A stretch of 64,000 nt of DNA from IMG/VR virus record IMGVR_UViG_3300029610_000240. The stretch is one strand, 5' to 3'. The stretch comes from a virus (taxonomy: Duplodnaviria; Heunggongvirae; Uroviricota; Caudoviricetes). Under the pieces are notes generated by a model. The model saw only the letters and a list, made by a program, of their open reading frames with translations, was not told where the DNA came from and did no database searches. Numbering within the stretch: the first letter of the stretch is position 1; the number at the start of each line of letters is the position of its first letter. The position numbers and the translations under genes are program-made. Below, in pieces: positions 32,731 through 56,352 of this stretch.

Positions 32731-32802
32731 TGATGATGACTTAATTGATGATTTAAGACAAAGTTTTAAAAATATGTAACAGATATATGTAAAAACAAAT
32801 GG
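32731..32802 (+). CRISPR. guide module A: one spacer-like segment plus one repeat
   Basis: Repeat GTTTTAAAAATATGTAACAGATATATGTAAAAACAAATGG (32763..32802), preceded by TGATGATGACTTAATTGATGATTTAAGACAAA. Confidence 0.6.
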
Positions 32803-32804
32803 CA

Positions 32805-32872
32805 GTTACATAATGCGTAAGAATAAGAATGTATCGAATAAGTCTATATAAGTAGAATCTACCAGGTGGTAG
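32805..32872 (+). ncRNA. tracrRNA-like scaffold A
   Basis: Anti-repeat GTTACATAATGCGTAAGAAT pairs with ATATGTAAC of the repeat. Nexus AAGAATGTATCGAAT. Hairpins TCTA/TAGA and CTACC-AGG-TGGTAG (32859..32872). Confidence 0.65.
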
Positions 32873-32904
32873 AAAATATTAAAACTAACAGGAGATAATA
32901 TTTC

Positions 32905-33267
32905 ATGGACACAGAAGATTTAATTGAAAAAAAGGTAAATATCATGATTTTACTATGTATCATGATGATAATGTTGGCTATGCTTCCCCGTATGGTTAAC
33001 CAGGTAATAAAAATTTGTAACTATAAACAAACAGCTTCTCTAAATGTGGATGATAAATATTACCAAAATTCTCGCTGGGGAAACAGCTATAAAATTGTTA
33101 TTAATTGTCATGATGAAGAAAAAGAAATTGCAGTTTCAGAAAAAGAATTTCACGCAATTAAAATCGGAGATAAAGTATTGTGTAATGTATATCGTTCAGC
33201 AAATCAAGTTGTAACTGTAGAATTAAATGAACATTGGAAAGACGCAGGTGACAAGTATGATAACTAA
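32905..33267 (+). CDS. small membrane-anchored protein
   Basis: RBS AGGAGA and one TM helix. Paralogue of 32225..32710. Confidence 0.55.
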   Translation: MDTEDLIEKKVNIMILLCIMMIMLAMLPRMVNQVIKICNYKQTASLNVDDKYYQNSRWGNSYKIVINCHDEEKEIAVSEKEFHAIKIGDKVLCNVYRSANQVVTVELNEHWKDAGDKYDN

Positions 33268-33730
33268 TTCAAAAAAATGGAACGATCCTGATTATTATGA
33301 AGAAAATTTCGTAAATATCATTTACGACAAACTTACAGAAGGAATGGGTTTGTCAAAAGATGAAAGAAAAAGCCTTTTGGATTTGCTTCTTAATCAAAGA
33401 CACGATCCGATGTATTATGACATTATTTGCCAAGAGTTTAAAAATCATTTATTTAAAGAGGAAGTAAGAACTATTTTTAGACTGAATGGTAAGTATTTTG
33501 AGATTCGTTGGATTCGCAAAAATGAATCTTTTGATGAACCAGATGAATTCCCTAATGATCCAATAGAGGTAGTAAAAACAACAAGGGTTGTAAAGGAATG
33601 GGTTGCAAAATCTGATCAGTATAATTTTGATCCCGTTCTTTTAAAGGAGCAAAAAGCAAAATTGCAAAAATATCTAAAAAAAATTGATTGTATTTTGGAT
33701 ATATTAGAAATGGAAAAAATGGATTACTAA
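33257..33730 (+). CDS. hypothetical protein, paralogue of 33806..34147
   Basis: WNDPDYYEENFVNIIYDKLTEGMGLSKDE..KYFEIRW versus WDDRDYYDEHFYDIMYDKITEGMKLTVDE..KYFEIRW. Confidence 0.55.
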   Translation: MITNSKKWNDPDYYEENFVNIIYDKLTEGMGLSKDERKSLLDLLLNQRHDPMYYDIICQEFKNHLFKEEVRTIFRLNGKYFEIRWIRKNESFDEPDEFPNDPIEVVKTTRVVKEWVAKSDQYNFDPVLLKEQKAKLQKYLKKIDCILDILEMEKMDY

Positions 33731-33805
33731 AGCAGACTGAAAAAAATTAGTCATTTATTAGTTTGTAATAATACAAAATAAGATAATTGAAAGGAGAAGC
33801 AGCTA

Positions 33806-34147
33806 ATGATAACAGATCAGGGAAGATGGGACGATAGAGATTACTATGATGAACATTTCTATGACATCATGTATGACAAGATTACGGAAGGAATGAAATT
33901 AACAGTAGATGAAATGGACAACCTTGTAAGTGCAGGATTATTTGATAAGGAAATTGTTCCGCATGAAGAATACTTAGAGGTTAATGATAATAATCAGAAG
34001 ATGAGAACCATTGTTAAGCTTCATGACAAATACTTTGAGATCCGTTGGACTCAATGGACACACAAAGATTCGGAATTTCCAAATGATCCAGTGGAAGTAA
34101 GAAAGAAACCTAAAATTATAGATGACTGGATTCCAGTAGAAAAATAA
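33806..34147 (+). CDS. hypothetical protein, paralogue of 33257..33730
   Basis: RBS AAAGGAGAA. Paralogy as described for 33257..33730. Confidence 0.55.
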   Translation: MITDQGRWDDRDYYDEHFYDIMYDKITEGMKLTVDEMDNLVSAGLFDKEIVPHEEYLEVNDNNQKMRTIVKLHDKYFEIRWTQWTHKDSEFPNDPVEVRKKPKIIDDWIPVEK

Positions 34148-34160
34148 GAGGGGGTTATTT

Positions 34161-34328
34161 ATGAATGAATTAACATTGCTTTCTATTGCAGTGACATTAT
34201 TTGTTATTATTTTGGTGATTGCAGGAGTTTTTACTTTTTTAAAATCAATCGTGCATAGATTAGATGGCGATATATATACAACAGCTGGTATCGTTGCTTT
34301 ATCCATTATGATGGAGAGGAGTGAATAA
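34161..34328 (+). CDS. 55-aa membrane protein
   Basis: ATG behind GAGGGGG. Product MNELTLLSIAVTLFVIILVIAGVFTFL.. Its stop abuts the next start. Below the ORF-track cut-off. Confidence 0.45.
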   Translation: MNELTLLSIAVTLFVIILVIAGVFTFLKSIVHRLDGDIYTTAGIVALSIMMERSE

Positions 34329-35135
34329 ATGAGTTTAGGAATCTACGATGCATTTATTTTTGATAGATCTTACACTATGGAAGAATTGACAAAAAAGATT
34401 GATATTCTAAGAAAAGATGTAAAAAAAACTATTGATATTCAATTACACAAATATGTACTGGAAAAGTTTTTATATTGCTATTTTTTGAGAGAAAATCTCA
34501 GCACCGATGAAATTTTAGAAATAGCGAAGAAAGAAACAGATTATGATAGGAAAATGTGGTTACAAGATACTGCTCAAGGGCAATGGAAATCATTATATCG
34601 AAACATTGTTCTGTATATTCGTGGTAAAGTCAGAAATCAAACAAGGGATAATTTGTTAGAAAGCTTGGATTATAATTATCGAGCTGTCTTGTTTTTGTTT
34701 GCTGTAGAAGGAAAAATACTTTGCGTTTACAGTGGAAATTCGAGTATTATTCCAATTTTGGAACAGCAAAAGTATCTAAGTGATTTTCAATATTGGAACA
34801 ATACAGATCGACCGAAAGAAATTTCAGAAAAAGACTGGGAAAAAAGATATTATCTTTGGGAAAAGGCAATTGGACCAGAGTATTTTCTACCAGATCATGG
34901 TTTCATGGTGAATCTTTATGATACTTCTATGGAATTATTTCGGTCAAATTTTCCATTTTATAAAGAATCTGTTCCAGATTATGATGATATTTTATACCGC
35001 TTAATGAACACGCTATATCCAGATATTGAAGGTGATCAATGGGAAGATAAATGGAATAAGCTAAAAAGGAATTGCCCAAAGATGGATATGGATGGGATTG
35101 GTCAGATTTTTGATCTTACTGAAAGGAGAAGCTAA
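34329..35135 (+). CDS. hypothetical protein
   Basis: 268-aa ORF with RBS GGAGAGGAG. Confidence 0.55.
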   Translation: MSLGIYDAFIFDRSYTMEELTKKIDILRKDVKKTIDIQLHKYVLEKFLYCYFLRENLSTDEILEIAKKETDYDRKMWLQDTAQGQWKSLYRNIVLYIRGKVRNQTRDNLLESLDYNYRAVLFLFAVEGKILCVYSGNSSIIPILEQQKYLSDFQYWNNTDRPKEISEKDWEKRYYLWEKAIGPEYFLPDHGFMVNLYDTSMELFRSNFPFYKESVPDYDDILYRLMNTLYPDIEGDQWEDKWNKLKRNCPKMDMDGIGQIFDLTERRS

Positions 35136-35137
35136 CC

Positions 35138-36085: not shown

Positions 36086-36133
36086 TAAACTTGTCTTTAA
36101 AAAGGAAATAATCATAATAGAAATGAACCAACT

Positions 36134-36277
36134 GTTTTGTAATCGTGTAAAAGCACTTAAATATGCTGTAGAAGATGTTTTGTTACTGTGCAACGGAAAT
36201 ATGTCTAAATGATTTAATTTATTACTACTTTTTATTCCTTTGTTTTGTAACCGTGTAACGGAGACATGTCTAAATGG
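36134..36277 (+). CRISPR. guide module B mini-array (3 repeats)
   Basis: Repeats at 36134..36165 (decayed), 36177..36212 and 36242..36277 (GTTTTGTAACCGTGTAACGGAGACATGTCTAAATGG). Spacers are 11 nt and 29 nt (TTTAATTTATTACTACTTTTTATTCCTTT). Confidence 0.7.
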
Positions 36278-36356
36278 TCAAATTATTTTGCACGGTGCGT
36301 AAAAATAAGAAATTATCGAATAGGCTCGTTAAAACGAGAGCTGCCGTGTGGCAGTA
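36278..36356 (+). ncRNA. tracrRNA-like scaffold B
   Basis: TCAAATTATT linker. Anti-repeat TTGCACGGTGCGTAAAAAT pairs with ACCGTGTAA. Nexus AAGAAATTATCGAAT. Hairpins CTCGT-TAAA-ACGAG and CTGCC-GTGT-GGCAG. Confidence 0.75.
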
Positions 36357-36499
36357 AATCTAAGCTACATCAATTTCAAGATTATAATTTGGGAGGAGAA
36401 AATGTTTGGGAAAATTAATGTTTTTTATTTATTGTTGGCTATATATTTGTATTATTTGTTATATTCTTGCAGCCAAGAACAAGAAAGAAGGTGTAGTGT

Positions 36500-37183
36500 A
36501 TGATTAATTTTTCAGTAGTTCATAATTCTTTATTCATTTTGCTTAGTATCATCTTTATATTATCTACAATAAATCCGCTCAAACATCGCTACGAACCAAT
36601 CATAGATATTGAGCCGCAGATCATAAAAATTAAAGATGGAAAATATGTAAAAATTGATTATATCATATACTCTCAGATTATAGATTCAAAATTGTATCGT
36701 AAGAAAAAGAATGAAAATATAATGAAATTAATGAGGATGAAATCATTATATATATTAGAACGTATTATTCGAAATATGCCATACAAAACAATTGTTGATC
36801 AAAGAGAATATATCGAAAATAATCTACAGACACAATTAAATGATAGTTTAAGAAAATATGGAATTGGAGTAGAACGTGTTGCTTTAAAAAATATTTTGGA
36901 AGATTCAGTTCTTGTATCTTGTGTAGATAAAAGCTCGAATGAAACTCATAAATGTACTTCCGAAGAAGTAGGAGATATTCCAAGTTATGTTGATGATCAT
37001 GTACGGACAGATTATATATCTATTTTTCAATATAATGATCAGATAATCAAATCAAGAAATAAAGATATTTATGATCAAGTAGAAGTTGGGAAAAAATACA
37101 ATGCTAGAATTAAGATTCTAATACATAATGATCAAACAGAAAATTATGATGTGGCAGAAATTATATCCGGAATTAAAAAATGA
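36500..37183 (+). CDS. membrane protein with weak SPFH/band-7-like segment
   Basis: N-terminal TM helix. LNDSLRKYGIGVERVALKNI resembles the SPFH core. Confidence 0.4.
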   Translation: MINFSVVHNSLFILLSIIFILSTINPLKHRYEPIIDIEPQIIKIKDGKYVKIDYIIYSQIIDSKLYRKKKNENIMKLMRMKSLYILERIIRNMPYKTIVDQREYIENNLQTQLNDSLRKYGIGVERVALKNILEDSVLVSCVDKSSNETHKCTSEEVGDIPSYVDDHVRTDYISIFQYNDQIIKSRNKDIYDQVEVGKKYNARIKILIHNDQTENYDVAEIISGIKK

Positions 37184-37201
37184 GGAAGGGAGCAAAAGAA
37201 A

Positions 37202-46126: not shown

Positions 46127-49100
46127 GTGCAGAATGGATTTTTAGGAATAACTGTTAGTAGTGAACAGGTTGGTTGGGCAGTTACAAATCCCAAATATGA
46201 GTTAGAACGTGCATCTCGAAAAGATTTATGGGGTGTAAGGCTTTTTGATAAAGCAGAAACAGCGGAAGATCGAAGAATGTTCCGTACAAACAGACGATTA
46301 AATCAGAGAAAAAAGAACAGAATACATTATCTTAGAGATATTTTCCATGAGGAAGTAAATCAAAAAGATCCTAACTTTTTTCAGCAATTAGATGAAAGCA
46401 ATTTCTGTGAAGATGATCGTACTGTAGAGTTTAATTTTGATACTAATCTTTATAAGAATCAGTTTCCAACAGTGTATCATTTAAGAAAATATCTAATGGA
46501 AACAAAAGATAAACCAGATATTCGTCTGGTATACTTAGCTTTTTCAAAATTTATGAAAAATCGAGGACATTTCTTATACAAAGGAAATCTTGGAGAGGTT
46601 ATGGACTTTGAAAATTCCATGAAAGGCTTTTGTGAAAGTTTAGAGAAATTTAATATTGACTTCCCTACATTATCAGATGAACAGGTAAAAGAAGTCCGAG
46701 ATATCTTATGTGATCATAAAATTGCTAAAACTGTGAAAAAGAAAAACATCATTACTATTACAAAAGTAAAAAGTAAGACAGCAAAAGCATGGATTGGACT
46801 GTTTTGTGGTTGCAGCGTTCCTGTTAAAGTATTATTTCAGGATATCGATGAAGAAATTGTAACGGATCCAGAAAAAATCTCATTTGAAGATGCTTCTTAT
46901 GATGATTGTATTGCAAATATTGAAAAGGGTGTCGGTATTTATTATGAAGCTATTGTTTCTGCAAAGATGCTTTTTGACTGGTCTATCCTGAATGAAATTT
47001 TAGGTGACCATCAGTTATTAAGTGATGCAATGATCGCAGAATACAATAAGCATCATGATGATTTAAAGCGTTTACAGAAGATCATTAAAGGAACTGGCAG
47101 TAGAGAATTATATCAGGATATCTTTATTAATGATGTTTCTGGAAATTATGTATGCTACGTTGGTCATGCAAAAACAATGAGTAGTGCAGATCAGAAACAG
47201 TTTTATACATTTTTAAAAAATCGATTAAAAAATGTGAATGGTATTTCATCAGAAGATGCAGAATGGATTGATACAGAGATTAAAAACGGTACTTTACTAC
47301 CAAAACAGACAAAACGTGATAACAGTGTTATTCCGCATCAATTACAGTTAAGGGAATTTGAATTAATTCTTGATAACATGCAGGAAATGTATCCATTCTT
47401 AAAAGAAAACAGAGAAAAATTATTAAAAATCTTCAATTTCGTTATTCCTTATTATGTAGGTCCGCTAAAGGGCGTTGTAAGAAAAGGAGAGAGTACAAAC
47501 TGGATGGTGCCTAAAAAAGATGGTGTGATTCATCCATGGAATTTCGATGAAATGGTAGACAAAGAAGCGTCTGCGGAATGTTTTATTTCCCGAATGACAG
47601 GAAATTGTAGTTATTTATTTAATGAAAAAGTTCTTCCAAAGAATTCTCTTCTTTATGAGACATTTGAGGTATTAAATGAGCTAAATCCATTAAAGATCAA
47701 TGGAGAACCTATCAGCGTGGAATTAAAACAGAGAATTTATGAACAGCTTTTCTTGACAGGGAAAAAAGTTACAAAAAAATCTCTGACAAAATATCTTATC
47801 AAGAATGGCTATGACAAAGATATTGAATTATCAGGTATTGATAATGAATTTCACAGCAATCTAAAATCTCATATTGATTTTGAGGATTACGATAATCTAT
47901 CTGATGAAGAAGTTGAACAGATTATTCTTAGAATTACAGTATTTGAAGATAAGCAGCTGTTAAAAGATTATTTAAATCGCGAGTTTGTAAAGCTCTCTGA
48001 GGATGAGAGAAAACAGATTTGCTCATTATCTTATAAAGGATGGGGAAACTTATCAGAAATGCTATTAAACGGTATTACTGTAACAGATTCCAATGGTGTA
48101 GAAGTTTCTGTAATGGATATGCTGTGGAATACAAACTTAAATCTGATGCAGATCTTAAGTAAGAAATATGGATATAAAGCAGAAATCGAACATTACAATA
48201 AAGAACATGAAAAAACCATTTATAATCGTGAAGATTTGATGGATTATTTAAATATTCCACCGGCTCAGCGTAGGAAGGTAAATCAGCTGATTACGATAGT
48301 AAAATCTCTCAAAAAGACATATGGAGTTCCAAATAAGATTTTCTTCAAAATAAGCAGAGAACATCAGGATGATCCAAAGAGAACTTCATCCAGAAAAGAA
48401 CAGCTAAAATATTTATACAAATCCTTAAAATCAGAAGATGAAAAACATCTTATGAAAGAGCTTGATGAATTGAACGATCATGAATTATCCAATGATAAAG
48501 TTTATCTTTATTTTCTACAGAAAGGACGCTGCATTTATTCTGGCAAGAAATTAAATCTTTCAAGATTAAGAAAATCTAATTATCAGAATGATATTGACTA
48601 CATTTATCCATTATCTGCAGTAAATGATCGTTCTATGAATAATAAGGTATTAACGGGAATCCAGGAGAATCGAGCAGACAAGTATACCTATTTTCCAGTT
48701 GATTCAGAAATTCAGAAAAAAATGAAGGGATTTTGGATGGAACTGGTTCTGCAGGGATTTATGACAAAGGAGAAATACTTCCGATTATCCAGAGAAAATG
48801 ATTTTTCAAAGAGCGAACTTGTTAGCTTTATTGAACGTGAAATTTCAGATAATCAGCAAAGTGGAAGAATGATTGCTTCTGTATTACAGTATTATTTCCC
48901 TGAATCAAAGATTGTATTTGTAAAAGAAAAGCTGATTTCTTCCTTTAAGAGGGATTTCCATTTAATTAGTAGTTATGGTCACAATCATTTACAAGCTGCA
49001 AAAGATGCTTATATTACGATTGTAGTTGGAAATGTATATCATACAAAATTTACAATGGACCCAGCAATCTATTTTAAGAATCATAAGAGAAAAGATTATG

Positions 49101-50065
49101 ATCTGAACCGATTATTCTTAGAAAATATCAGCAGAGATGGACAGATTGCATGGGAAAGTGGTCCATATGGGTCAATTCAGACGGTTCGAAAAGAATATGC
49201 TCAAAACCATATTGCTGTTACAAAAAGAGTCGTGGAAGTAAAAGGCGGCTTATTTAAGCAGATGCCATTAAAAAAAGGACATGGCGAATATCCATTAAAA
49301 ACCAATGATCCTAGATTTGGCAATATCGCACAGTATGGAGGGTATACGAATGTCACAGGTTCCTATTTTGTATTAGTAGAATCAATGGAGAAAGGGAAAA
49401 AACGTATTTCTTTAGAATATGTTCCAGTATATCTTCATGAGCGTTTAGAGGATGATCCTGGACATAAACTGTTAAAAGAATATCTGGTTGATCACAGAAA
49501 ACTTAATCATCCAAAGATTTTACTTGCAAAAGTAAGAAAAAACTCATTACTTAAGATTGACGGTTTTTATTATCGTTTAAATGGTCGAAGTGGAAATGCT
49601 CTTATCCTTACAAATGCAGTGGAATTGATCATGGATGACTGGCAGACAAAAACAGCAAACAAGATTTCTGGATACATGAAACGCAGAGCTATTGATAAGA
49701 AAGCAAGGGTTTATCAAAATGAATTCCATATTCAGGAATTAGAACAGCTTTATGATTTTTATTTAGATAAATTAGAGAATGGTGTTTATAAAAATCGTAA
49801 GAATAATCAGGCTGAATTAATTCACAACGAAAAAGAACAGTTTATGGAACTCAAGACAGAAGATCAGTGTGTATTATTGACTGAGATTAAAAAGCTTTTT
49901 GTATGTTCTCCAATGCAGGCAGACCTTACATTGATTGGTGGCAGCAAACACACAGGAATGATTGCTATGTCAAGCAATGTTACAAAAGCAGATTTTGCAG
50001 TCATTGCGGAAGATCCTTTAGGACTTAGAAACAAAGTAATTTATTCTCATAAAGGTGAGAAGTAA
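46127..50065 (+). CDS. cas9: Cas9 homologue (type II-A-like size) with substituted RuvC and HNH catalytic residues
   Basis: GTG start 7 nt after AAGGAGGA. Conserved: bridge helix RRMFRTNRRLNQRKKNRIHYLRDIF, FPTVYHLRKYL, NRGHFLYKG, IPHQLQL, IPYYVGPL, PWNFDEMVDKEASAECFISRMT, YKGWGNLS. Catalytic columns: LGITVSSEQVGWAV (D10 is T), IFFKISREHQ (E762 is K), DIDYIYPLS (H840 is Y), QAAKDAYITIVVG (H983 is A, D986 kept). Confidence 0.9.
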   Translation: MQNGFLGITVSSEQVGWAVTNPKYELERASRKDLWGVRLFDKAETAEDRRMFRTNRRLNQRKKNRIHYLRDIFHEEVNQKDPNFFQQLDESNFCEDDRTVEFNFDTNLYKNQFPTVYHLRKYLMETKDKPDIRLVYLAFSKFMKNRGHFLYKGNLGEVMDFENSMKGFCESLEKFNIDFPTLSDEQVKEVRDILCDHKIAKTVKKKNIITITKVKSKTAKAWIGLFCGCSVPVKVLFQDIDEEIVTDPEKISFEDASYDDCIANIEKGVGIYYEAIVSAKMLFDWSILNEILGDHQLLSDAMIAEYNKHHDDLKRLQKIIKGTGSRELYQDIFINDVSGNYVCYVGHAKTMSSADQKQFYTFLKNRLKNVNGISSEDAEWIDTEIKNGTLLPKQTKRDNSVIPHQLQLREFELILDNMQEMYPFLKENREKLLKIFNFVIPYYVGPLKGVVRKGESTNWMVPKKDGVIHPWNFDEMVDKEASAECFISRMTGNCSYLFNEKVLPKNSLLYETFEVLNELNPLKINGEPISVELKQRIYEQLFLTGKKVTKKSLTKYLIKNGYDKDIELSGIDNEFHSNLKSHIDFEDYDNLSDEEVEQIILRITVFEDKQLLKDYLNREFVKLSEDERKQICSLSYKGWGNLSEMLLNGITVTDSNGVEVSVMDMLWNTNLNLMQILSKKYGYKAEIEHYNKEHEKTIYNREDLMDYLNIPPAQRRKVNQLITIVKSLKKTYGVPNKIFFKISREHQDDPKRTSSRKEQLKYLYKSLKSEDEKHLMKELDELNDHELSNDKVYLYFLQKGRCIYSGKKLNLSRLRKSNYQNDIDYIYPLSAVNDRSMNNKVLTGIQENRADKYTYFPVDSEIQKKMKGFWMELVLQGFMTKEKYFRLSRENDFSKSELVSFIEREISDNQQSGRMIASVLQYYFPESKIVFVKEKLISSFKRDFHLISSYGHNHLQAAKDAYITIVVGNVYHTKFTMDPAIYFKNHKRKDYDLNRLFLENISRDGQIAWESGPYGSIQTVRKEYAQNHIAVTKRVVEVKGGLFKQMPLKKGHGEYPLKTNDPRFGNIAQYGGYTNVTGSYFVLVESMEKGKKRISLEYVPVYLHERLEDDPGHKLLKEYLVDHRKLNHPKILLAKVRKNSLLKIDGFYYRLNGRSGNALILTNAVELIMDDWQTKTANKISGYMKRRAIDKKARVYQNEFHIQELEQLYDFYLDKLENGVYKNRKNNQAELIHNEKEQFMELKTEDQCVLLTEIKKLFVCSPMQADLTLIGGSKHTGMIAMSSNVTKADFAVIAEDPLGLRNKVIYSHKGEK

Positions 50066-50106: not shown

Positions 50107-50259
50107 GCTTTGGAACTGCGTAGAACATGATATGTCTTATGGCTAAAAGAATTACAGGTGCATATTTTGAACTGTGTAAAACATGGCATATGGGAGAATT
50201 GGCAACGACTGGAACAGAACACAGTTTTGAAACTGTATAAAACATGACATGTCTTATGG
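50107..50259 (+). CRISPR. guide module C mini-array (3 repeats), starting 42 nt after the cas9 stop
   Basis: Repeats at 50107..50142 (6 mismatches), 50164..50193 (30 nt, decayed) and 50224..50259 (GTTTTGAAACTGTATAAAACATGACATGTCTTATGG). Spacers: 21 nt CTAAAAGAATTACAGGTGCAT and 30 nt GAGAATTGGCAACGACTGGAACAGAACACA. Confidence 0.75.
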
Positions 50260-50336
50260 TTCAAATTATTTATACAGTACGTGAAAATAAGAAATTATCG
50301 AATAAACTCGTTTAGACGAGAACTGCTAGAGGCAGT
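50260..50336 (+). ncRNA. tracrRNA-like scaffold C
   Basis: Anti-repeat TTTATACAGTACGTGAAAAT gives a 10-bp perfect pairing with ACTGTATAAA. Nexus AAGAAATTATCGAAT. Hairpins CTCGT-TTAG-ACGAG and CTGC-TAGAG-GCAG (50323..50335). Confidence 0.8.
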
Positions 50337-50352
50337 AATTGCAGAAAATGTC

Positions 50353-50385
50353 ATGAACCCCAAGCGACTTCGTCGGCCGGGGGTT
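50353..50385 (+). terminator. GC-rich hairpin after module C
   Basis: AACCCC..CGAC-TTC-GTCG..GGGGTT nested stem followed by a short T run. Confidence 0.45.
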
Positions 50386-50448
50386 TACGCACCAATTTGA
50401 TAATATTTCTAATCATATATTACCTTATATGATTAATGGAGAAAATAG

Positions 50449-50595
50449 ATGTTTCAAGTAAAAAATAAAGAAACTGGGCAAGAATATACCGTATATGCTG
50501 TCGGGGATGAATATCTGACAAAATTTCTGATTTATGAAGATGGACATTGGAAATGGCAGACTATAGATGATTTTGTTCCAGTGATTGTAGATTAA
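50449..50595 (+). CDS. 48-aa hypothetical protein
   Basis: ATG behind GGAGAAAATAG. Product MFQVKNKETGQEYTVYAVGDEYLTKFLIYEDGHWKWQTIDDFVPVIVD. Below the ORF-track cut-off. Confidence 0.4.
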   Translation: MFQVKNKETGQEYTVYAVGDEYLTKFLIYEDGHWKWQTIDDFVPVIVD

Positions 50596-50612: not shown

Positions 50613-50957
50613 ATGAAGATTACAAGAACGATTAAATTTAAAGAATATATCCTCGGATATTTAGAAAAATTAGAGGTTCATGAAGTTCGACGCATTGAAA
50701 AAGCCGGACGATTAAGCCGTGACATTATCAAAGAGGAATCTGAAAAATGCGGACACAAATTAATGATTCTTGATACGATTGAAAAAGAAAGACGTTATGA
50801 ATGTTCATTAGAAGATTTCTTATCCGTTGCAAGAGAGATTCCACTAAAAAATCAGGAGACTGTTAATACAGAAGAAAAAAATGTTCAGGAAGATAATTCA
50901 GAGGATTCTAAGTCTAAGTTAGGCGATTCTGACTGTGCCCCTTGGATTGAAGATTAA
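50613..50957 (+). CDS. hypothetical protein
   Basis: 114-aa ORF lying between guide modules C and D. Confidence 0.5.
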   Translation: MKITRTIKFKEYILGYLEKLEVHEVRRIEKAGRLSRDIIKEESEKCGHKLMILDTIEKERRYECSLEDFLSVAREIPLKNQETVNTEEKNVQEDNSEDSKSKLGDSDCAPWIED

Positions 50958-50961
50958 TGTT

Positions 50962-51117
50962 ATTTTGAGAAATGATTGCAAATGTGATCGTAGCGTACCT
51001 TACTTCACAGCTTAGTTTTGGAACTATGTAAAATCAAATGATTGCAAATGGGCAGAGAGAAAATTTGAAAAATTGTCTGTGTTTTGGAACTATGTAAAAT
51101 CAAATGATTGCAAATGG
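50962..51117 (+). CRISPR. guide module D mini-array (3 repeats)
   Basis: Repeats at 50962..50985 (internally deleted), 51015..51051 and 51081..51117 (GTTTTGGAACTATGTAAAATCAAATGATTGCAAATGG). Spacers: GATCGTAGCGTACCTTACTTCACAGCTTA and GCAGAGAGAAAATTTGAAAAATTGTCTGT. Confidence 0.8.
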
Positions 51118-51193
51118 TCAAAGTAATTGCATGGCGTGTAAAAATAAGAATTTATCGAAATAATTTGCTCCGGCGAAATCTGCAAGATGCAGA
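51118..51193 (+). ncRNA. tracrRNA-like scaffold D
   Basis: TCAAAGTAA linker. Anti-repeat TTGCATGGCGTGTAAAAAT pairs with CTATGTAA through two G:U. Nexus AAGAATTTATCGAAAT. Hairpins TTTGC-TCCG-GCGAA and TCTGC-AAGA-TGCAGA. Confidence 0.75.
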
Positions 51194-51197
51194 AATC

Positions 51198-51265
51198 AAG
51201 CTGATCGATGCTTTACATATTTATCTATTTCAATATTTCTTCAACCATATACATTGATCAGCTTT
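51198..51265 (+). terminator. long-loop inverted repeat with AGCTGATC core (possible terminator)
   Basis: AAGCTGATCGATG pairs with CATTGATCAGCTT (13 bp, one G:U) around a 42-nt loop. A related element lies at 54054..54131. Confidence 0.4.
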
Positions 51266-51290
51266 AATAAAAAGAATTAAAATTACGAAA

Positions 51291-51445
51291 ATAAAATTGA
51301 ATGATTCCAATGGATAGTCGAAAAAGAATTGGATAGTCGACGGGTTTTAGAATAGTGTAAAATTGAATGATTCTAAGGGTTAGATACTCCACTAGATAGC
51401 AAAGTACTTGTTTTAGAATAGTGTAAAATTAAATGATTCTAAGGG
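51291..51445 (+). CRISPR. guide module E mini-array (3 repeats)
   Basis: Repeats at 51292..51313 (3' half only), 51344..51379 (GTTTTAGAATAGTGTAAAATTGAATGATTCTAAGGG) and 51410..51445. Spacers: ATAGTCGAAAAAGAATTGGATAGTCGACGG and TTAGATACTCCACTAGATAGCAAAGTACTT. Confidence 0.8.
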
Positions 51446-51528
51446 GTCAAATAGATTCTATACAATGCGTGAAAATAAGAAACTTATCGAACAAACCTGT
51501 GTAGGAAACAGGAACTGCCGAGGGCAGT
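51446..51528 (+). ncRNA. tracrRNA-like scaffold E
   Basis: GTCAAATAGAT linker, anti-repeat TCTATACAATGCGTGAAAAT, nexus AAGAAACTTATCGAAC. Hairpins CCTGT-GTAGGAA-ACAGG and CTGCC-GAG-GGCAG (51515..51527). Confidence 0.75.
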
Positions 51529-51823
51529 AAAAATAAAAAGCATATTTTTATTATGTTTTATTTTATGATGAAGAGGTGGATGATGGTTCTATCTCTGTTT
51601 TTGAGAAAATGGATGCATTGCAAAATGCAACAATCTTAGAAGTACAAATACATATTGATGACTTAAAAGATAAATTGGAAGAAGTAAAATTTACTCTTAA
51701 AATATCAGGTTTGTATTTGAAGAAGATAATTTTATGGATTCTTATTATAAATCTTATACGTTACCGATTGTATATCACAAAAACTATTTATTAAGTATTA
51801 ACAATGATAAGGAATAACAATAA

Positions 51824-53755
51824 ATGGAAATAGATTACAGAAAAGAATTAAATAAGAGTCAATATGAAGCTGTTACAACGACAGAAGGACCAGTCCTAAT
51901 CCTTGCCGGTGCCGGAACTGGCAAAACTCGTTGTATGGTATATCGTGTGGCATATCTGATTGAAAAAGGCGTGTCACCCAATAATATCTTATTATTGACC
52001 TTTACAAATAAAGCAGCAAATGAAATGAAGCAAAGGGCAGCAGATATGCTTGATGAACGATGTAGTCAAATTACTGCATGTACATATCATTCATTCTGTG
52101 CAAAGATGCTTCGCAAATATTCACAACTGATTGGAATTCAATCAGATTATACAATTATTGATCCGGGAGATTGTGCAGATATCATATCGATCATCGAAAC
52201 AGAACACGGTATGGATAAAGTAAAAGATTTTCCAAGATCATCTCAACTGGTATCAGCACATAGCAAAGCCTTAAATACGAATCAGTCATTAGAGGATACT
52301 TTGTTTGATATGCTCGGTAAATGGAAGTATATGGAAATCGAAAGATTCATTCCAGATATAAAGAAAATCTTAGCGGATTATCAATCATACAAAAAACAAA
52401 ACAACATGATGGATTATGATGATTTGCTAATCAATTTTATATCTGTATTGAAAAGAAACCCTTCTATAAAGAATAAATTAGCTGATATTTATCAGTATAT
52501 TATGATCGACGAATATCAGGATTCTAATTATTTACAGGAAAAGATTATTTTTATGTTACGTGAAAAGAATCGTAACTTAGCAGTGGTAGGTGATGATTAC
52601 CAATGCATCTATGGATTTAGAGGAAGTATGGTAGAAAATATCATTAATTTTCCACAAAAGATGTCCGGATGTAAAGTTGTTTACTTAACACAGAATTATC
52701 GCAGCAATCAAGAGATCATGGATTTATCCAATATTGTTATGAAAAAACATTCACTGGAAGGTTTTTTTAAAAAGCTTGTCGCAACTCATGTGGCCAATAT
52801 TCAGCCATTGCTAGTTCGATCAGAGGACGAGGGCGAAGAAGCTTCTTATATTTTAAATAAGATTATGGCATTACATGATGAAGAAGAGATTCCGTATCAT
52901 GAAATTTGTGTTCTTGAAAGAAGTTCTTATCATTCTGTAAGACTAGAAGCACTTTTAAATAAAATGAAAATCCCATATGACAAATATGGTGGAATGAAGT
53001 TTTTTGATTATGATCATATCAAAAACTTCTTATGCTTTTTGCGATGTCAGATAAATCCACATGATGAAATTGCGTGGTTTCGACTATTAAAGTTATTTGA
53101 TGGTATTGGAAATGTTTATGCCAGAAATATCGCAGCAACATGTAAAACTCTTGGATTAGAGGGACTTGTTCAACACAAATACATAAAAAGAAAATTTCAG
53201 CCGGATCTTGAAAATTTAAAGAGTTTTATTGAAAAGCTTAATGATCAAGATTTTCAGATCGAATTGCAAAGCATTAAATCATTTTATTCACGTTTAATGG
53301 ACATTACATTAATGCTGATGAAAACATCGGAGAAGAAACGTAGGGAGCTTGCTAGAGCAAATAAACAAGCGGTCCGCGATTTTGATACACTGATTGAAAT
53401 GGCAGATGGATATGATTCTCCAGTGACATTTCTGGAAGAAATAATGCTTGAAGCCAGTCCTCAGAAAGAGGAAGAGGAAGATCGAATGGTTATATCTACA
53501 ATTCATTCCGCAAAAGGCTTAGAGTTTCACTCTGTTTTTGTTATGAACTGCGTAGATACAATGTTTCCATCTACAGATAAAGATCAGATTGGAACAGTAG
53601 AAGATAACGAAGAGTTGAGATGCTTCTATGTGGCAATAACACGGGCAAAAGAACGATTATTTTTAATGGCACCGAAATATATAGCCAAATTTGGATGTGT
53701 TGAAGAGGGAATTATCTCCCATTTTATTAGTGATGTTTTTCAAGTAAAGGAGTAA
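51824..53755 (+). CDS. UvrD/PcrA-type SF1 DNA helicase
   Basis: Walker A AGAGTGKT, motif II IMIDEYQDSN, QNYRSNQEI, late STIHSAKGLEF and FYVAITRAKERL. Confidence 0.85.
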   Translation: MEIDYRKELNKSQYEAVTTTEGPVLILAGAGTGKTRCMVYRVAYLIEKGVSPNNILLLTFTNKAANEMKQRAADMLDERCSQITACTYHSFCAKMLRKYSQLIGIQSDYTIIDPGDCADIISIIETEHGMDKVKDFPRSSQLVSAHSKALNTNQSLEDTLFDMLGKWKYMEIERFIPDIKKILADYQSYKKQNNMMDYDDLLINFISVLKRNPSIKNKLADIYQYIMIDEYQDSNYLQEKIIFMLREKNRNLAVVGDDYQCIYGFRGSMVENIINFPQKMSGCKVVYLTQNYRSNQEIMDLSNIVMKKHSLEGFFKKLVATHVANIQPLLVRSEDEGEEASYILNKIMALHDEEEIPYHEICVLERSSYHSVRLEALLNKMKIPYDKYGGMKFFDYDHIKNFLCFLRCQINPHDEIAWFRLLKLFDGIGNVYARNIAATCKTLGLEGLVQHKYIKRKFQPDLENLKSFIEKLNDQDFQIELQSIKSFYSRLMDITLMLMKTSEKKRRELARANKQAVRDFDTLIEMADGYDSPVTFLEEIMLEASPQKEEEEDRMVISTIHSAKGLEFHSVFVMNCVDTMFPSTDKDQIGTVEDNEELRCFYVAITRAKERLFLMAPKYIAKFGCVEEGIISHFISDVFQVKE

Positions 53756-53791
53756 TTTATAGTGAAATGCTTAAATTATGTTGTCAATGTG

Positions 53792-53965
53792 GATTTGAAT
53801 CCATGTAAAAATGTAAAGCAAATGATTCCAAATGGCAATCTTCTCGAATTGTCGTGTAGGCAAAGTTTTGAAACCATGTAAAAAAATGATTCCAAATGGG
53901 TATGCATTGGTGTTTGAAGCGTTTGTGTGTTTTGGAACCATGTAAAAGCAAATGATTCCAAATGG
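53792..53965 (+). CRISPR. guide module F mini-array (3 repeats)
   Basis: Repeats at 53792..53835 (internal duplication), 53865..53899 (2-nt deletion) and 53929..53965 (GTTTTGGAACCATGTAAAAGCAAATGATTCCAAATGG). Spacers: CAATCTTCTCGAATTGTCGTGTAGGCAAA and GTATGCATTGGTGTTTGAAGCGTTTGTGT. Confidence 0.8.
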
Positions 53966-54043
53966 TTAAAAGCAGATTACATGGTGTGTCAAAATAAGAA
54001 CTTATCGAATAGATCTATATAAATGGAATCTGCCAGGTGGCAG
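53966..54043 (+). ncRNA. tracrRNA-like scaffold F
   Basis: Anti-repeat TTACATGGTGTGTCAAAAT gives a 9-bp perfect pairing with ACCATGTAA. Nexus AAGAACTTATCGAAT. Hairpin 2 CTGCC-AGGT-GGCAG (54030..54043). Hairpin 1 is weak and resembles that of scaffold A. Confidence 0.75.
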
Positions 54044-54053
54044 AAAAAAACTG

Positions 54054-54131
54054 AAAAAGCTGATCAATAATAACTGTTGTTACCATAATATTAATTTATG
54101 TTTTTGTATTTTGTCTATTGATCAGCTTTTT
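54054..54131 (+). terminator. 16-bp perfect long-loop inverted repeat with AGCTGATC core
   Basis: AAAAAGCTGATCAATA pairs perfectly with TATTGATCAGCTTTTT around a 46-nt loop. Confidence 0.5.
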
Positions 54132-54133
54132 GC

Positions 54134-55411
54134 ATGAAAATGAAAGTTATAAATATGGCAATGAAGAAAGTCGGTGATGATAAATTGAGAAGAAAAGTAG
54201 TCAGTTTTTTACTTGTTACACTTATGATGGCAACGATCACTCCTGTACATGCAGATGAGGTGTCAGAACCAACAACTGCTGCGACAGAAGTTACAACAAC
54301 AGAAACGAAGCCGACTACGACAGAAAAAAAAGAAACAACTCATCATAAGGAAAAAACAGTAAAAAAAGATAAGAAAACAAAAAAGAAAAATACTAAAAAA
54401 GATGGGAAAAAGAAAAGTAAACAAAAAGAAAAATCTAAAAAAAAGGAAAACAAAAAATCAACAATTCCGATGCCTAAACGGGCTGTAAAGAAAAAAGGTT
54501 GTGATACTGTACAAAAGAAGATTGTAAAAATGCAATCAAAGATTAAAAAGTTGCAGAAAGAACAAAAAAATATCCGAAAAGAGATCAAAAAAGAAAATAA
54601 TAAAAAAGAAGCACTGCAGCGATTTTATCAGCAATATCCTACAGAGCGTGAAGCAACTATGAAACTGCGAGGACAAAAGATTACACCTCTTACTAAGATT
54701 TCAGAGGAAGACGATGCATTAAGAAATAGATTATTCAGTTTAGCTAATACATTTCATGACGATCAACTACGTAAAATTGCCTCTGAGTACGTCTTTGGCG
54801 TAAGAGATCTTAATTTTGAAGACCTGTTAAACGAGGATGATACCATTGACCTTAATACATATTTAAAAGGCAAATATATTGCTCCAACGCAGAATATGCA
54901 GATAGGAATTAAAAATAAGGATCAAGAAATTCAAAAATTAAAGAAACAGATCAAAGAGGAAAAGAAAACCAGATTTTTTGATCCGAAAAACGTAAATTCT
55001 ATTAGCAATATTACAGTTGATGATGCTAAAAAGATGTTGTCTGGAACGCAATTATATCCAGAAGCAGAAGCTTTTGTTAAAGCAGAAAGAATTCATCATG
55101 TAAATGCAGTCTTTTTAATGGGAATTGCTGCACATGAAAGTGCCTGGGGAACAAGCCGGCGTGCCAGAGAAGATAATAATTTAACTGGATATGGAGTTTA
55201 CTCAGATAGTGCAAAGGGCATCAATAAGACAAGCAAAGAAGAAGGATTATTAGCCACCGCTGAGACATTGCACGAACGATACTTAACCCCTGGAGGCAGC
55301 TATTACGAAGGAACTTCCGTTGCTGATGTAAATAAACATTATTGTGTCGGAAATGAATGGGCCGGAGCGGTAGTTGGTTATGCTTATCAATTAATGAATA
55401 AACTAAATTAG
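54134..55411 (+). CDS. secreted Lys-rich protein with C-terminal GH73-type glucosaminidase domain
   Basis: Signal peptide and K/E-rich low-complexity linker. AVFLMGIAAHESAWGTSRRAREDNNLTGYGV is the FlgJ/GH73 catalytic region. Confidence 0.75.
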   Translation: MKMKVINMAMKKVGDDKLRRKVVSFLLVTLMMATITPVHADEVSEPTTAATEVTTTETKPTTTEKKETTHHKEKTVKKDKKTKKKNTKKDGKKKSKQKEKSKKKENKKSTIPMPKRAVKKKGCDTVQKKIVKMQSKIKKLQKEQKNIRKEIKKENNKKEALQRFYQQYPTEREATMKLRGQKITPLTKISEEDDALRNRLFSLANTFHDDQLRKIASEYVFGVRDLNFEDLLNEDDTIDLNTYLKGKYIAPTQNMQIGIKNKDQEIQKLKKQIKEEKKTRFFDPKNVNSISNITVDDAKKMLSGTQLYPEAEAFVKAERIHHVNAVFLMGIAAHESAWGTSRRAREDNNLTGYGVYSDSAKGINKTSKEEGLLATAETLHERYLTPGGSYYEGTSVADVNKHYCVGNEWAGAVVGYAYQLMNKLN

Positions 55412-55543
55412 ATATCATCAAAGAGGTTTTGGTTAACTAAAGGTTGATTATCGGTATATCATTGTTCGGTGTCTGTAGACAGCATTTTTTCAAATCTATA
55501 GTTGTTATAAAATAAGAGACACTTTCATGTATAGTGGAGTTTA

Positions 55544-55570
55544 GTTTCAGAAGTTTATAAAAACAGATAA
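55544..55570 (+). CRISPR. guide module G: single divergent repeat
   Basis: GTTTCAGAAGTTTATAAAAACAGATAA, preceded by the candidate guide GAGACACTTTCATGTATAGTGGAGTTTA. Confidence 0.5.
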
Positions 55571-55580
55571 CTATTAATGA

Positions 55581-55658
55581 TTATCTGTTTCATGGATTGT
55601 GTAAAAATAAGCAAATTAGCGAATATGCTCGTTGAAACGAGAGCTGTTAGATAACAGC
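55581..55658 (+). ncRNA. tracrRNA-like scaffold G
   Basis: TTATCTGTTT pairs perfectly with AAACAGATAA across a 10-nt loop. GATTGTGTAAAAAT, nexus variant AAGCAAATTAGCGAAT. Hairpins CTCGT-TGAA-ACGAG and GCTGTTA-GA-TAACAGC. Confidence 0.6.
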
Positions 55659-55710
55659 TAAAAATGTAACTATATAAATTAATTTGTAAATTATAGGGAG
55701 GACTATTTTA

Positions 55711-55866
55711 GTGAAACACGGTAAAGTTCCAACAAGAAATCAAAAAGAACTTATGTTAAAAAATAATCTTAATCCGAAAGAATGGCTGGTTGTAAAGAAA
55801 ATGGCGGATGGATTTGAGATTGTTAATAGAGAAAATGAAGCAGATCGTAAATTTCTGTATTGTTAA
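55711..55866 (+). CDS. 51-aa small protein
   Basis: GTG start behind GGGAGGA. Product MKHGKVPTRNQKELMLKNNLNPKEWLVVKK.. resembles small conserved proteins of Firmicutes mobile elements, recalled from memory. Below the ORF-track cut-off. Confidence 0.45.
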   Translation: MKHGKVPTRNQKELMLKNNLNPKEWLVVKKMADGFEIVNRENEADRKFLYC

Positions 55867-55875
55867 GGTGAAATA

Positions 55876-56091
55876 ATGATGGATATTTACACAAGATTAT
55901 TGATGATGGATATTATGATATCGGCAGTAGCTATTATGGTAAATATCTTAGAAAATTGTCCGATTAACGGTAAAATACACAATATTTCAAGAATTTTAAT
56001 CATATCTAGTATTGCTGCAGACATTATCTTACTTTTAGGAATTGTCAATACGTTCATCTCATACAGTATCCTGTATTCTTATTTTAAATAA
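55876..56091 (+). CDS. small membrane protein
   Basis: 71 aa with two hydrophobic helices. Its stop overlaps the first, partial repeat of module H. Confidence 0.45.
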   Translation: MMDIYTRLLMMDIMISAVAIMVNILENCPINGKIHNISRILIISSIAADIILLLGIVNTFISYSILYSYFK

Positions 56092-56094
56092 GAT

Positions 56095-56249
56095 ACAGAA
56101 GAATCATTGTCGATGTTAAACATATTATGTGAAACATTATTGTCAGGCTTTAGAAGTCTATAAAACAGAATCATTGTCAATGAGATCAAATTCTTTATGA
56201 CAACGCAATACAGCTTTAGAAGTCTATAAAACAGAATCATTGTCAATGG
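56095..56249 (+). CRISPR. guide module H mini-array (3 repeats)
   Basis: Repeats at 56095..56115 (3' half only), 56147..56183 and 56213..56249 (GCTTTAGAAGTCTATAAAACAGAATCATTGTCAATGG). Spacers: TTAAACATATTATGTGAAACATTATTGTCAG and GATCAAATTCTTTATGACAACGCAATACA. Confidence 0.8.
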
Positions 56250-56325
56250 TCAAATAAGCAGACTGCGTAAAAATAAGAATTTTATCGATATTGCTCGTGT
56301 AGTCGAGAACTGCCAAGTGGCAGCA
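56250..56325 (+). ncRNA. tracrRNA-like scaffold H
   Basis: TCAAATAAG linker, anti-repeat CAGACTGCGTAAAAAT, nexus AAGAATTTTATCGAT. Hairpins CTCG-TGTAGT-CGAG and CTGCC-AAGT-GGCAG (56310..56323). The next gene's RBS follows 18 nt later. Confidence 0.75.
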
Positions 56326-56352
56326 ACATTTATAATAAAAAGGAGGAATTAT

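Follow-up and report, generated by a model that had tools for sequence, protein, structure and literature searches.

The canonical type II-A CRISPR-Cas9 system, reportedly exemplified by that of S. pyogenes as described by Deltcheva in 2011, uses a separate trans-activating CRISPR RNA (tracrRNA). To our knowledge, the natural tracrRNAs described so far are separate genes ending in an intrinsic terminator, and tracrRNA prediction often uses this terminator as a criterion. The window analysed here, a stretch of 64,000 nucleotides from the IMG/VR virus record IMGVR_UViG_3300029610_000240, carries a cas9 gene and eight guide modules, named A to H, in each of which a short CRISPR array is followed by a scaffold resembling the tail of a tracrRNA. 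The scaffolds lack the terminator, and the modules are placed among protein-coding genes of the same strand. We consider it reasonably probable that the modules as a whole are best explained as terminator-less guide cassettes, fused in cis and embedded in a co-directional gene block, which would be read through by the polymerase and then processed.

The system of the window shares with the type II-A systems of S. pyogenes and of two chromosomal relatives (loci L042 and L043) the domain layout of Cas9, 36-nt repeats, 30-nt spacers, bulged pairing of repeat and anti-repeat, and a homologous nexus followed by two hairpins. Unlike them, it has no cas1, cas2 or csn2, its eight mini-arrays are dispersed rather than united in one, the last repeat of every array continues in cis into its own tracrRNA, which has no third hairpin or U-tract, and the catalytic residues of Cas9 are replaced. 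Four hallmarks of type II-A systems are missing: adaptation genes, a tracrRNA gene that stands apart, a terminator on the tracrRNA, and the usual catalytic residues. The tracr-L of S. pyogenes is reportedly a natural single guide, said to have been described by Workman in 2021. The guide RNAs of OMEGA systems are embedded in the mRNA of their own nuclease. Phage vsgRNAs are natural single guides with 11–14-nt guide sequences that repress the cas9 promoter, and tracr-L is summarised in the same preprint as having an 11–14-nt guide and repressing the cas9 promoter; a Rho-independent terminator closes the vsgRNA, and vsgRNAs are defined as lying more than 10 kb from cas9 (bioRxiv 10.64898/2026.06.01.729453). 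Similar to tracr-L and vsgRNAs, the modules are predicted to combine a CRISPR RNA (crRNA)-like part and a tracrRNA on one transcript with a single-guide-like fold, in which the stem is joined by a loop. They differ from both in their full 30-nt, varying spacers, one of which is derived from a phage, and in having no match to the cas9 region; unlike vsgRNAs, they sit beside their own cas9 and have no terminator. Among OMEGA systems, IscB is guided by the HEARO omega-RNA and TnpB by a reRNA (RAGATH-18, PMC11061315). As in these systems, the guides in the window appear to have no transcription unit of their own and abut or overlap a protein-coding transcript, module C following the cas9 stop codon by 41 nt. 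The OMEGA guide is single, fixed at the transposon end and without an array, whereas the modules are arrays with changing spacers, mostly beside genes other than that of their nuclease. An incomplete literature search, which can offer absence of evidence only, found no published account of operon-embedded, terminator-less Cas9 guide cassettes or of a natural, fully dead Cas9.

The covariance model of Rfam family RF03055 (RAGATH-30) has eight matches in the window, all on the plus strand and scoring 64.7–78.6 bits (gathering score 59.5), and 25 additional matches in related loci, which are denoted here by L numbers. The matches in the window are the scaffolds of the following modules:

32722–32875, plus strand: module A, with a repeat remnant (32722–32732), a spacer (32733–32762), the terminal repeat (32763–32801), the anti-repeat, and the scaffold (32817–32875); hairpin 2 ends at 32872, followed by a Shine-Dalgarno sequence (32890–32894, AGGAG) and an ATG (32905).
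36134–36357, plus strand: module B, with a degenerate repeat from 36134, a repeat (36177–36211), a spacer (36212–36241), the terminal repeat (36242–36276), and the scaffold (36299–36357); hairpin 2 ends at 36354, followed by a Shine-Dalgarno sequence (36391–36398, GGGAGGAG) and an ATG (36402).
50107–50338, plus strand: module C, with two degenerate repeats, two spacers (50143–50164 and 50194–50223), the terminal repeat (50224–50258), and the scaffold (50281–50338).
50969–51195, plus strand: module D, with the 3′ half of a repeat (50969–50984), spacer D1 (50985–51014), a repeat (51015–51050), spacer D2 (51051–51080), the terminal repeat (51081–51116), and the scaffold (51138–51195).
51293–51530, plus strand: module E, with the 3′ part of a repeat (51293–51313), a spacer (51314–51343), a repeat (51344–51379), a spacer (51380–51409), the terminal repeat (51410–51445), and the scaffold (51469–51530).
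53792–54046, plus strand: module F, with a degenerate repeat ending at 53834, a spacer (53835–53864), a repeat (53865–53898), a spacer (53900–53928), the terminal repeat (53929–53964), and the scaffold (53988–54046).
55514–55660, plus strand: module G, with a single spacer (55514–55543), the terminal repeat (55544–55579), and the scaffold (55601–55660), followed by a Shine-Dalgarno sequence (55696–55702, GGGAGGA) and the GTG (55711) of the DUF6906 gene.
56096–56326, plus strand: module H, with the 3′ part of a repeat (56096–56115), a spacer (56116–56146), a repeat (56147–56182), a spacer (56183–56212), the terminal repeat (56213–56248), and the scaffold (56267–56326), followed by a Shine-Dalgarno sequence (56340–56347, AAGGAGGA) and an ATG (56353).

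Each scaffold is preceded by a mini-array of 36-nt repeats with one to three spacers of 29–31 nt, and no CRISPR arrays were found elsewhere in the window. The 5′-most repeat is cut down to its 3′ half in most arrays, and the upstream repeats of modules B and C are degenerate in the window. The last repeat is joined to the anti-repeat through a short conserved linker with the consensus GGTCAAA(T/A), a GGUCAAAU-like loop. In seven of the eight modules, the exception being H, the minimum-free-energy fold pairs the terminal repeat with the anti-repeat in cis, forming a lower stem (GUUUU/AAAAU), a bulge and an upper stem, after which two hairpins follow. Because of the fusion in cis, the last spacer, the last repeat and the tail are able to adopt the fold of an engineered single-guide RNA. 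Repeats and anti-repeats vary between modules in step. However, the duplex energies of repeats and anti-repeats across modules are not cleanly diagonal, and strict specificity of the pairing in cis is therefore not claimed. Some modules of related elements are decayed or have no array: a scaffold without a repeat is present in L031 (8039–8092), the repeat has been lost in L029 (8653–8712), and the “array” of the post-cas9 module of L036 (about 8620–8720) consists of reiterated 5′ repeat halves only.

The scaffold ends at its 3′ side in hairpin 2, which has a stem of 5–7 bp in all eight modules of the window. In an alignment of 33 distinct sequences, 99.4% of the cells of hairpin 1 were paired, with compensatory changes in five of five pairs, and hairpin 2 formed in the individual folds of all 28 of its distinct versions, with stems such as CTGCC/GGCAG, CTGTT/AACAG, CTACC/GGTAG and CTGTC/GACAG. 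The eight scaffolds are predicted to be the tracrRNA tails, comprising a nexus and two hairpins, of a system that has Cas9 only and derives from type II-A, and their conserved structure suggests that Cas9 would bind the nexus and the 3′ hairpins. RAGATH motifs were defined near twister and hammerhead genes, and self-cleaving ribozymes were therefore sought next to the modules; neither the window (E≤1) nor 11 loci (gathering score) contained any. No literature mention of RAGATH-30 was found in the search described above, incomplete as it was and giving absence of evidence only.

The bases that follow hairpin 2, read from the window, are AAAATATT in A, TAAATC in B, TAATTG in C, AAATCAAG in D, TAAAAAT in E, AAAAAAAC in F, (C)TAAAAATG in G, and CAACATT in H. 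A consensus scan detected no intrinsic terminator on the plus strand at any of the eight scaffold ends. A covariance model built from the eight scaffolds gave 111 matches in the fetched loci, which reduce to 39 distinct copies with readable flanks. The first 10 nt past hairpin 2 of these copies contain 55% A and 26% T, compared with 38% A and 29% T in the background of the window, and no T-run longer than five was found within 15 nt of hairpin 2 in any of them. An earlier note on this DNA had described the eight scaffolds as having A-rich tails and no U-tract; it quoted the tails correctly, and both the scan and the 39 copies agree with it. The strongest support comes from the comparison with the chromosomal relatives L042 and L043. 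The scaffold model derived from the window aligns end to end with the tracrRNAs located upstream of cas9 in these loci (L042 5754–5809, L043 5781–5839), and a third hairpin with a T-run starts directly after the homologous hairpin 2. The same consensus scan picked up these terminators (L042 5811–5842, L043 5838–5860), and it can therefore detect terminators in such RNAs. The tracrRNA of L042 also has a good promoter (TTGACG-17-TATAGT). Because of the end-to-end homology to terminated tracrRNAs, the scaffolds of the element are homologous tracrRNA tails that lack exactly the third hairpin and the U-tract. The comparison also shows the absence of the terminator to be a derived trait of the whole family rather than a quirk of one locus.

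The modules are packed among genes of the same orientation. Nearly all open reading frames (ORFs) between about 26 and 57 kb of the window are on the plus strand, and in the distinct copies the closest neighbouring ORF of at least 90 aa runs in the same direction as the module in 38 of 39 cases on the upstream side and in 35 of 36 on the downstream side. Two genes of the block are the following:

46127–50065, plus strand: cas9, 1312 aa, with the Pfam domains Cas9_REC, Cas9_PI, bridge helix and HNH_4, and a type II-A-like architecture.
51824–53755, plus strand: UvrD/Rep-family helicase gene, between modules E and F.

The distance from the upstream stop codon to the start of the module is 48 nt for B (stop 36085), 41 nt for C (cas9 stop 50065), 11 nt for D (stop 50957 of the ORF 50613–50957), 36 nt for F (helicase stop 53755), and 4 nt for H (stop 56091 of the ORF 55876–56091). 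The tight upstream stops pointed out previously are thus found for these five modules, at 4–48 nt. Module G starts 102 nt after the stop, no convincing ORF is present for about 250 nt upstream of A, and E follows the hairpin of D without being packed against an ORF. On the other side, the Shine-Dalgarno sequence of the next gene is reached 18 nt after hairpin 2 in A, 37 nt in B, 38 nt in G and 17 nt in H, in line with the ribosome-binding sites noted earlier within about 20–50 nt of these modules. About 60% of the 39 distinct copies have a Shine-Dalgarno sequence and a start codon 23–55 nt past hairpin 2. The ORF after B, starting with the ATG at 36402, encodes 33 aa and is coupled to the Band_7 gene at 36500.

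The modules keep their positions throughout the clade, where they follow cas9, the glucosaminidase gene, and either the DUF6906 gene or the next small ORF. These positions hold in elements whose Cas9 proteins are only 71–89% identical, and a module directly after cas9 is also present in L029, L031 and L036. The UvrD/Rep-family helicase gene directly follows cas9 and module C in L029 and is absent from L031 and L036. A 51-nt G+C-rich insertion downstream of C (50350–50400, plus strand), which forms a hairpin followed by UUU, is present in eight fetched copies and absent from L001, L015 and L029; without it, a 48-aa ORF starts about 60 nt after hairpin 2 of C. Ancestrally, module C also had a start codon close by, as tightly placed as in A, B, G and H, which corrects the earlier account of the modules. 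The 48-aa ORF (50449–50595 in the window) has no family match and is kept directly after the post-cas9 module in the window, L001, L015 and L029; its product could be an accessory or regulatory protein of the Cas9 system. Since the modules have no terminator and a ribosome-binding site lies a few tens of bases further on, the polymerase would normally have to run into the next gene. Read-through from the module into this gene, and some sharing of transcripts with protein genes, are strongly implied by this arrangement.

The best-surviving alternative, which we regard as unlikely, is that the modules are autonomous, each with its own promoter, which would be placed in the truncated leader repeat, within the 3′ end of the upstream ORF or, as in type II-C systems, within the repeats. 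Upstream genes would then add little, the missing terminator would only let guide transcripts continue into the next gene, and guide dosage would be uncoupled from the neighbouring genes. A crude sigma-A score over the 95 nt around array starts is slightly above background, as this alternative would predict (median 5.8 versus 4.5 in random windows, p=0.0016). However, this enrichment is weak, A+T-rich intergenic DNA accounts for part of it, most of the promoter-like sites score within the background range, and only those of E, G and one relative exceed its 90th percentile. The best sites in the window precede E (TTGATC-18-TAAAAT, 51254–51283, with the −35-like TTGATC provided by the 3′ arm of the hairpin that follows D) and G (TTAACT-18-TATCAT, 55433–55462, as well as TGTTATAAA just 5′ of the G spacer). 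E and G are also the two of the six modules at 50–56 kb that are not packed against an ORF. Other candidates lie just before B (TTGTCT-16-CATAAT) and just before C (TTTTCA-17-CATAAT), and −10-like boxes can be read directly 5–12 nt 5′ of the first spacer in A, D and G.

Type II-C arrays of Neisseria and Campylobacter are reportedly transcribed from promoters inside their repeats, according to work attributed to Zhang (2013) and Dugar (2013). The truncated or degenerate 5′-most repeats and the −10-like boxes in or before the repeats of the modules resemble this arrangement and speak for autonomy. In contrast to type II-C, no convincing extended −10 box occupies a constant place in the repeats, both Cas9 and the repeats belong to the II-A kind, and pairing with the anti-repeat accounts for the TGTAAAAT box of the repeats. 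Furthermore, the arrays of relatives that start 0–15 nt after the upstream stop codon (L029 4309, L031 7784, L036 10680) leave no room for a promoter outside the ORF, and autonomous genes would not need the strict sense orientation. The earlier note had proposed that the guides are parts of polycistronic mRNAs. The part of this proposal that concerns read-through into the next gene stands, whereas entry of transcription from the upstream genes is more tentative, the best promoter-like sites of the window lying before E and G. Excision of the guides from the mRNA, presented there as required, would be an inferred step, and a guide may function with a 3′ extension still attached. The proposed coupling of guide dosage to the neighbouring genes is plausible and likely partial, because some modules seem to have promoters.

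Modules D, E and F each carry an additional hairpin and T-run 1–10 nt past hairpin 2:

51199–51266, plus strand: inverted repeat after D (AGCTGATCGATG...CATTGATCAGCT), with a 13-bp stem and a 41-nt loop, then TTT; candidate atypical terminator.
51529–51564, plus strand: A+T-rich hairpin after E, then a T-rich run; weakly terminator-like, with the GTG of the next ORF at 51576.
54054–54131, plus strand: inverted repeat after F (AAAAAGCTGATCAATA...TATTGATCAGCTTTTT), with a stem of about 18 bp and a large A+T loop, then T5; candidate terminator, after which the glucosaminidase ORF starts at 54134.

These structures have stems that are 13–18 bp long or A+T-rich, T-runs of T3–T5, and loops of 41–50 nt (about 150 nt in L031 and L036). 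The 58-nt stretch containing hairpin 2 and the hairpin after E has a minimum free energy of −14 kcal/mol (z −3.3). The structures at 51199–51266 and 54054–54131 are the only copies in the window of a conserved inverted repeat, AGCTGATCAAT...ATTGATCAGCT(TTTT), with an A+T-rich loop of 41–50 nt. The same inverted repeat follows orthologous modules in L012, L014, L031 and L036, after certain modules only, and in L031 and L036 its loop is enlarged to about 150 nt by a structured insert. The repeat may represent a terminator, a small element that has been inserted, or an unassigned RNA.

The hairpins bear on the placement of the modules at the 3′ ends of protein operons, which had been suggested for all eight. 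This description suits only D, E and F with their terminator-like hairpins. Modules A, B, C, G and H lie inside runs of genes, where they can with equal right be called 5′ leaders of the gene that follows and 3′ trailers of the gene before. The polymerase would pass through these five modules, making them internal to protein-coding transcripts, and D, E and F would end transcription units only by means of the separate hairpins a few bases downstream. The transcription units can tentatively be drawn as [cas9 - C - orf48 - orf114 - D] with a stop, [E] with a weak stop, [orf72 - helicase - F] with a stop, and [glucosaminidase - G - DUF6906 - orf71 - H - orf217 - HTH gene], where HTH denotes helix-turn-helix. 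On this map, D and F stand at the 3′ end of an operon, E forms a small separate unit, and the five remaining modules (A, B, C, G and H) are internal. A second alternative, that the modules are discrete units closed by hidden termination, either Rho-dependent, or assisted by NusA/NusG at hairpin 2, or at the large-loop and A+T-rich hairpins, would account for the stable hairpins with T-runs 1–10 nt after D, E and F and for the G+C-rich hairpin with UUU that module C of the window has acquired. We consider it quite improbable. In A, B, G, H and ancestral C, a Shine-Dalgarno sequence comes 17–50 nt after hairpin 2 and there is no second hairpin, the conserved downstream genes (DUF6906 and the 217-aa ORF) would lose expression, and the chromosomal relatives show what a true terminator looks like in this RNA family.

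The best match of the window Cas9 in the PDB is a Cas9 (E=7e-216). No cas1, cas2 or csn2 was found among the scanned ORFs of the window, or among the called genes within 10 kb of cas9 in L001–L010, L029, L031 and L036; the three genes are present beside cas9 in L042 and L043. The catalytic motifs of the clade differ from the canonical ones as follows, with residues assigned in the numbering of SpCas9:

RuvC-I: canonical GLDLG, clade GITVS; SpCas9 D10 replaced by T (T9).
RuvC-II: canonical FVEMARE, clade FFKISRE; SpCas9 E762 replaced by K (K741).
RuvC-III: canonical HHAKDAY, clade LQAAKDAY; SpCas9 H983 replaced by A (A957).
HNH: canonical DIDHIYPQS, clade DIDYIYPLS; SpCas9 H840 replaced by Y (Y825).

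The pairwise alignment with the best PDB match agrees for the first two positions (D10 and E762). Retained in the window Cas9 are the positions of RuvC D986, HNH D839 and HNH N863 (N848). The replacements are common to clade members of 71–100% identity, and the HNH histidine is kept only in P0020. The cas9 gene is under strong purifying selection: the ratio of nonsynonymous to synonymous substitution rates (dN/dS) is 0.087 in comparison with L029, 0.06–0.09 in other pairs, and 0.04–0.075 in the HNH region. The Cas9 of the clade is predicted to be naturally nuclease-dead, binding DNA without cutting it, or at most nicking it in the P0020 lineage. In sixteen clusters (P0003–P0018, for example P0008), the same Cas9, 96–99% identical, has an in-frame deletion of residues about 742–897, which removes the whole HNH domain; this form was found on contigs up to 111 kb long.

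Other Cas9 proteins and non-cutting effectors on mobile elements provide a comparison. CRISPR-Cas9 is carried by a Campylobacter integrative and conjugative element (ICE) (10.1101/2021.06.01.446523), and the phage variant II-C2 has a dead RuvC and an apparently active HNH (PMC12669027, PMC11656645). Like these, the window Cas9 is borne by a mobile element that lacks a complete adaptation module, and its predicted RuvC inactivation matches that of II-C2. It differs from them in its II-A-like lineage and in the HNH domain, whose histidine is also replaced or which is deleted altogether, and multiple cis-fused guide cassettes are not reported for the Campylobacter ICE or II-C2 in the cited papers. 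CRISPR immunity by binding only is represented by Cas12c, Cas12m and type IV-A with DinG (PMC12669027, PMC11656645). With these the system shares a predicted non-cutting effector on a plasmid or ICE, often without adaptation genes, and an adjoining superfamily-1 helicase gene; the UvrD/Rep-family helicase beside the cassettes recalls the helicase partner of binding-only type IV-A systems. The differences are that the effector is a Cas9, that silencing is a prediction, and that the helicase is absent from some relatives.

The spacers of modules D, E and F are wholly different between elements with 100% identical Cas9 (window, L001, L002, L013 and L015); those of module D, for example, differ among the window, L001 and L015. 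Spacer numbers differ between elements in 66-nt steps. The arrays thus turn over even though no cas1 or cas2 is present within 10 kb, and adaptation must therefore be supplied in trans or by recombination. Spacer D1 (50985–51014) matches four IMG/VR contigs (L038–L041), with 30 of 30 positions in one and 29 of 30 in three. The protospacer lies in a MazF-like gene beside genes for a DNA polymerase, a Gp2.5-like single-stranded-DNA-binding protein and an exonuclease, which identifies the contigs as phage. Its 3′ flank, AGAAGTTGG, is the sole clue to the protospacer-adjacent motif. Five IMG/VR spacer scans gave one real protospacer, that of D1, while three gave nothing and one gave arrays only. 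All 13 window spacers, searched as a concatenated sequence, had no match in PLSDB or INPHARED, and no spacer matches were found outside arrays in the window or related loci. No seed match of at least 10 nt occurs near cas9, the only match in the window being one of 13 nt to B1 at 12099. Self-targeting by B1 (26019–26042; 12099–12111) was considered and treated as a chance similarity, as the sequence is of low complexity and the rest of the spacer is missing.

The Cas9-guide system looks functional, judging from the turnover of spacers, the phage match of D1, the cas9 dN/dS of about 0.08, and a cluster of 2780 members. It is very improbable that the modules are decaying remnants or cis-acting leader elements, in which Cas9 bound to the nascent scaffold controls the translation or stability of the next gene: the decayed copies of L031 (8039–8092) and L029 (8653–8712), the degenerate upstream repeats of B and C, and the 17–55 nt that separate the scaffold from many start codons would fit, but compensatory changes preserve both hairpins, spacers turn over between Cas9-identical elements, one spacer matches a phage at 30 of 30 positions, cas9 is under strong purifying selection, and no spacer matches the window itself.

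Several points weigh against read-through cassettes as the explanation of the modules. Transcription start sites, read-through and processing are all deduced from the sequence. The promoter and terminator scans are consensus matches in DNA of 32% G+C, and promoter-like matches are no commoner than in shuffled sequences. Many of the copies counted for orientation are orthologous and do not represent independent events. The 3′ ends of upstream ORFs could contain promoters, as could the truncated leader repeats and the repeats themselves, and Rho-dependent or factor-assisted termination may occur at the modules. The hairpins after D and F have loops of 41–150 nt, unusual for intrinsic terminators. 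The loss of nuclease activity is predicted from residues only, and P0020 retains the HNH histidine.

Based on the arrangement of the modules, a mechanism of guide production from read-through cassettes can be proposed. Loss of the terminator would let the cassettes enter operons without polar effects on downstream genes of the element; it may be the price of insertion at sites where the downstream genes (DUF6906, an Xis-like HTH gene and others) still need to be expressed. The polymerase would run through the module into the next gene, with E and G probably adding promoters of their own. RNase III presumably cuts the stems of repeat and anti-repeat, both the intramolecular ones and those formed by upstream repeats paired with any free tail, and Cas9 would hold and protect the tail as in other type II systems. 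Host RNases (RNase Y/J or 3′ exonucleases) may cut or trim the A-rich single strand past hairpin 2, which would free the guide from the downstream mRNA. Given the replaced catalytic residues of the clade Cas9, the guides probably serve for binding or silencing and not for cutting.

The system is carried by a mobile element from bacteria of the human gut, which is integrative and Tn916-like. Many human-gut assemblies contain the same Cas9 (76 index blocks), and its 90% cluster contains 2780 member sequences. Clade members of 89%, 74% and 73% identity are encoded in the same type of element, between ATLF-domain and glucosaminidase genes; past the latter follow the DUF6906 gene, a Tn916-type Xis/integrase pair, and then host genes. 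The element is not regarded as a phage, since a PHROGs scan of ten window ORFs found no phage structural genes, although IMG/VR lists related contigs as viral. The next-nearest Cas9 proteins (40–42% identity) belong to ordinary chromosomal cas9-cas1-cas2-csn2 loci with the tracrRNA upstream of cas9. A tblastn search with Cas9 found nothing above 35% identity in PLSDB or INPHARED, and a Cas9 scan found no relatives in species-representative genomes. The six scaffold-pattern matches in the latter genomes resemble chance hits, except possibly the one in L025, a metagenome-assembled genome of Bacillota.

The window contains three kinds of RNA-guided protein within 64 kb, namely Cas9, IscB and TnpB. 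A HEARO omega-RNA (19765–19994, 112 bits) lies directly upstream of the IscB gene (20045–21319, RRXRR and HNH domains), and the TnpB gene (23580–24698, minus strand) has OrfB_IS605 and Cas12f1-like TNB domains. An Eco57I-type methylase is paired with a BsuBI/PstI-type restriction endonuclease at 13979–16359, and an LPXTG-anchored SpaA/Cna_B surface protein is encoded at 231–4673; both are cargo typical of conjugative elements of Bacillota. A weak match to group II intron D1-D4-6 at 60835–60923 (21.9 bits, E=0.036) is below the gathering score.

Engineers express multiple guides from one transcript using ribozymes, tRNAs or Csy4. The cassettes would be a natural solution to the production of many Cas9 guides from polycistronic transcripts, linking the supply of guides to the expression programme of the mobile element, and they make it testable how bacterial RNases set the 3′ end of a Cas9 guide. 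Because prediction often uses the terminator as a criterion, a family of at least 39 terminator-less tracrRNA tails, fused to arrays and placed in operons, would be missed by such pipelines. Together with the replaced catalytic residues, the cassettes suggest that an element abundant in the human gut (2780 sequences in the 90% cluster) carries a natural system of the dCas9 type. We tentatively speculate, while holding it to be somewhat less probable than not, that a naturally dead Cas9 on this element, supplied with many operon-written single-guide cassettes, silences phages and so protects the element or its host, which would make it an undescribed branch of type II systems. If so, guide production would ride on the gene expression of the element, phages would be bound and silenced rather than cleaved, and the orphan Rfam motif RAGATH-30 would gain a function.

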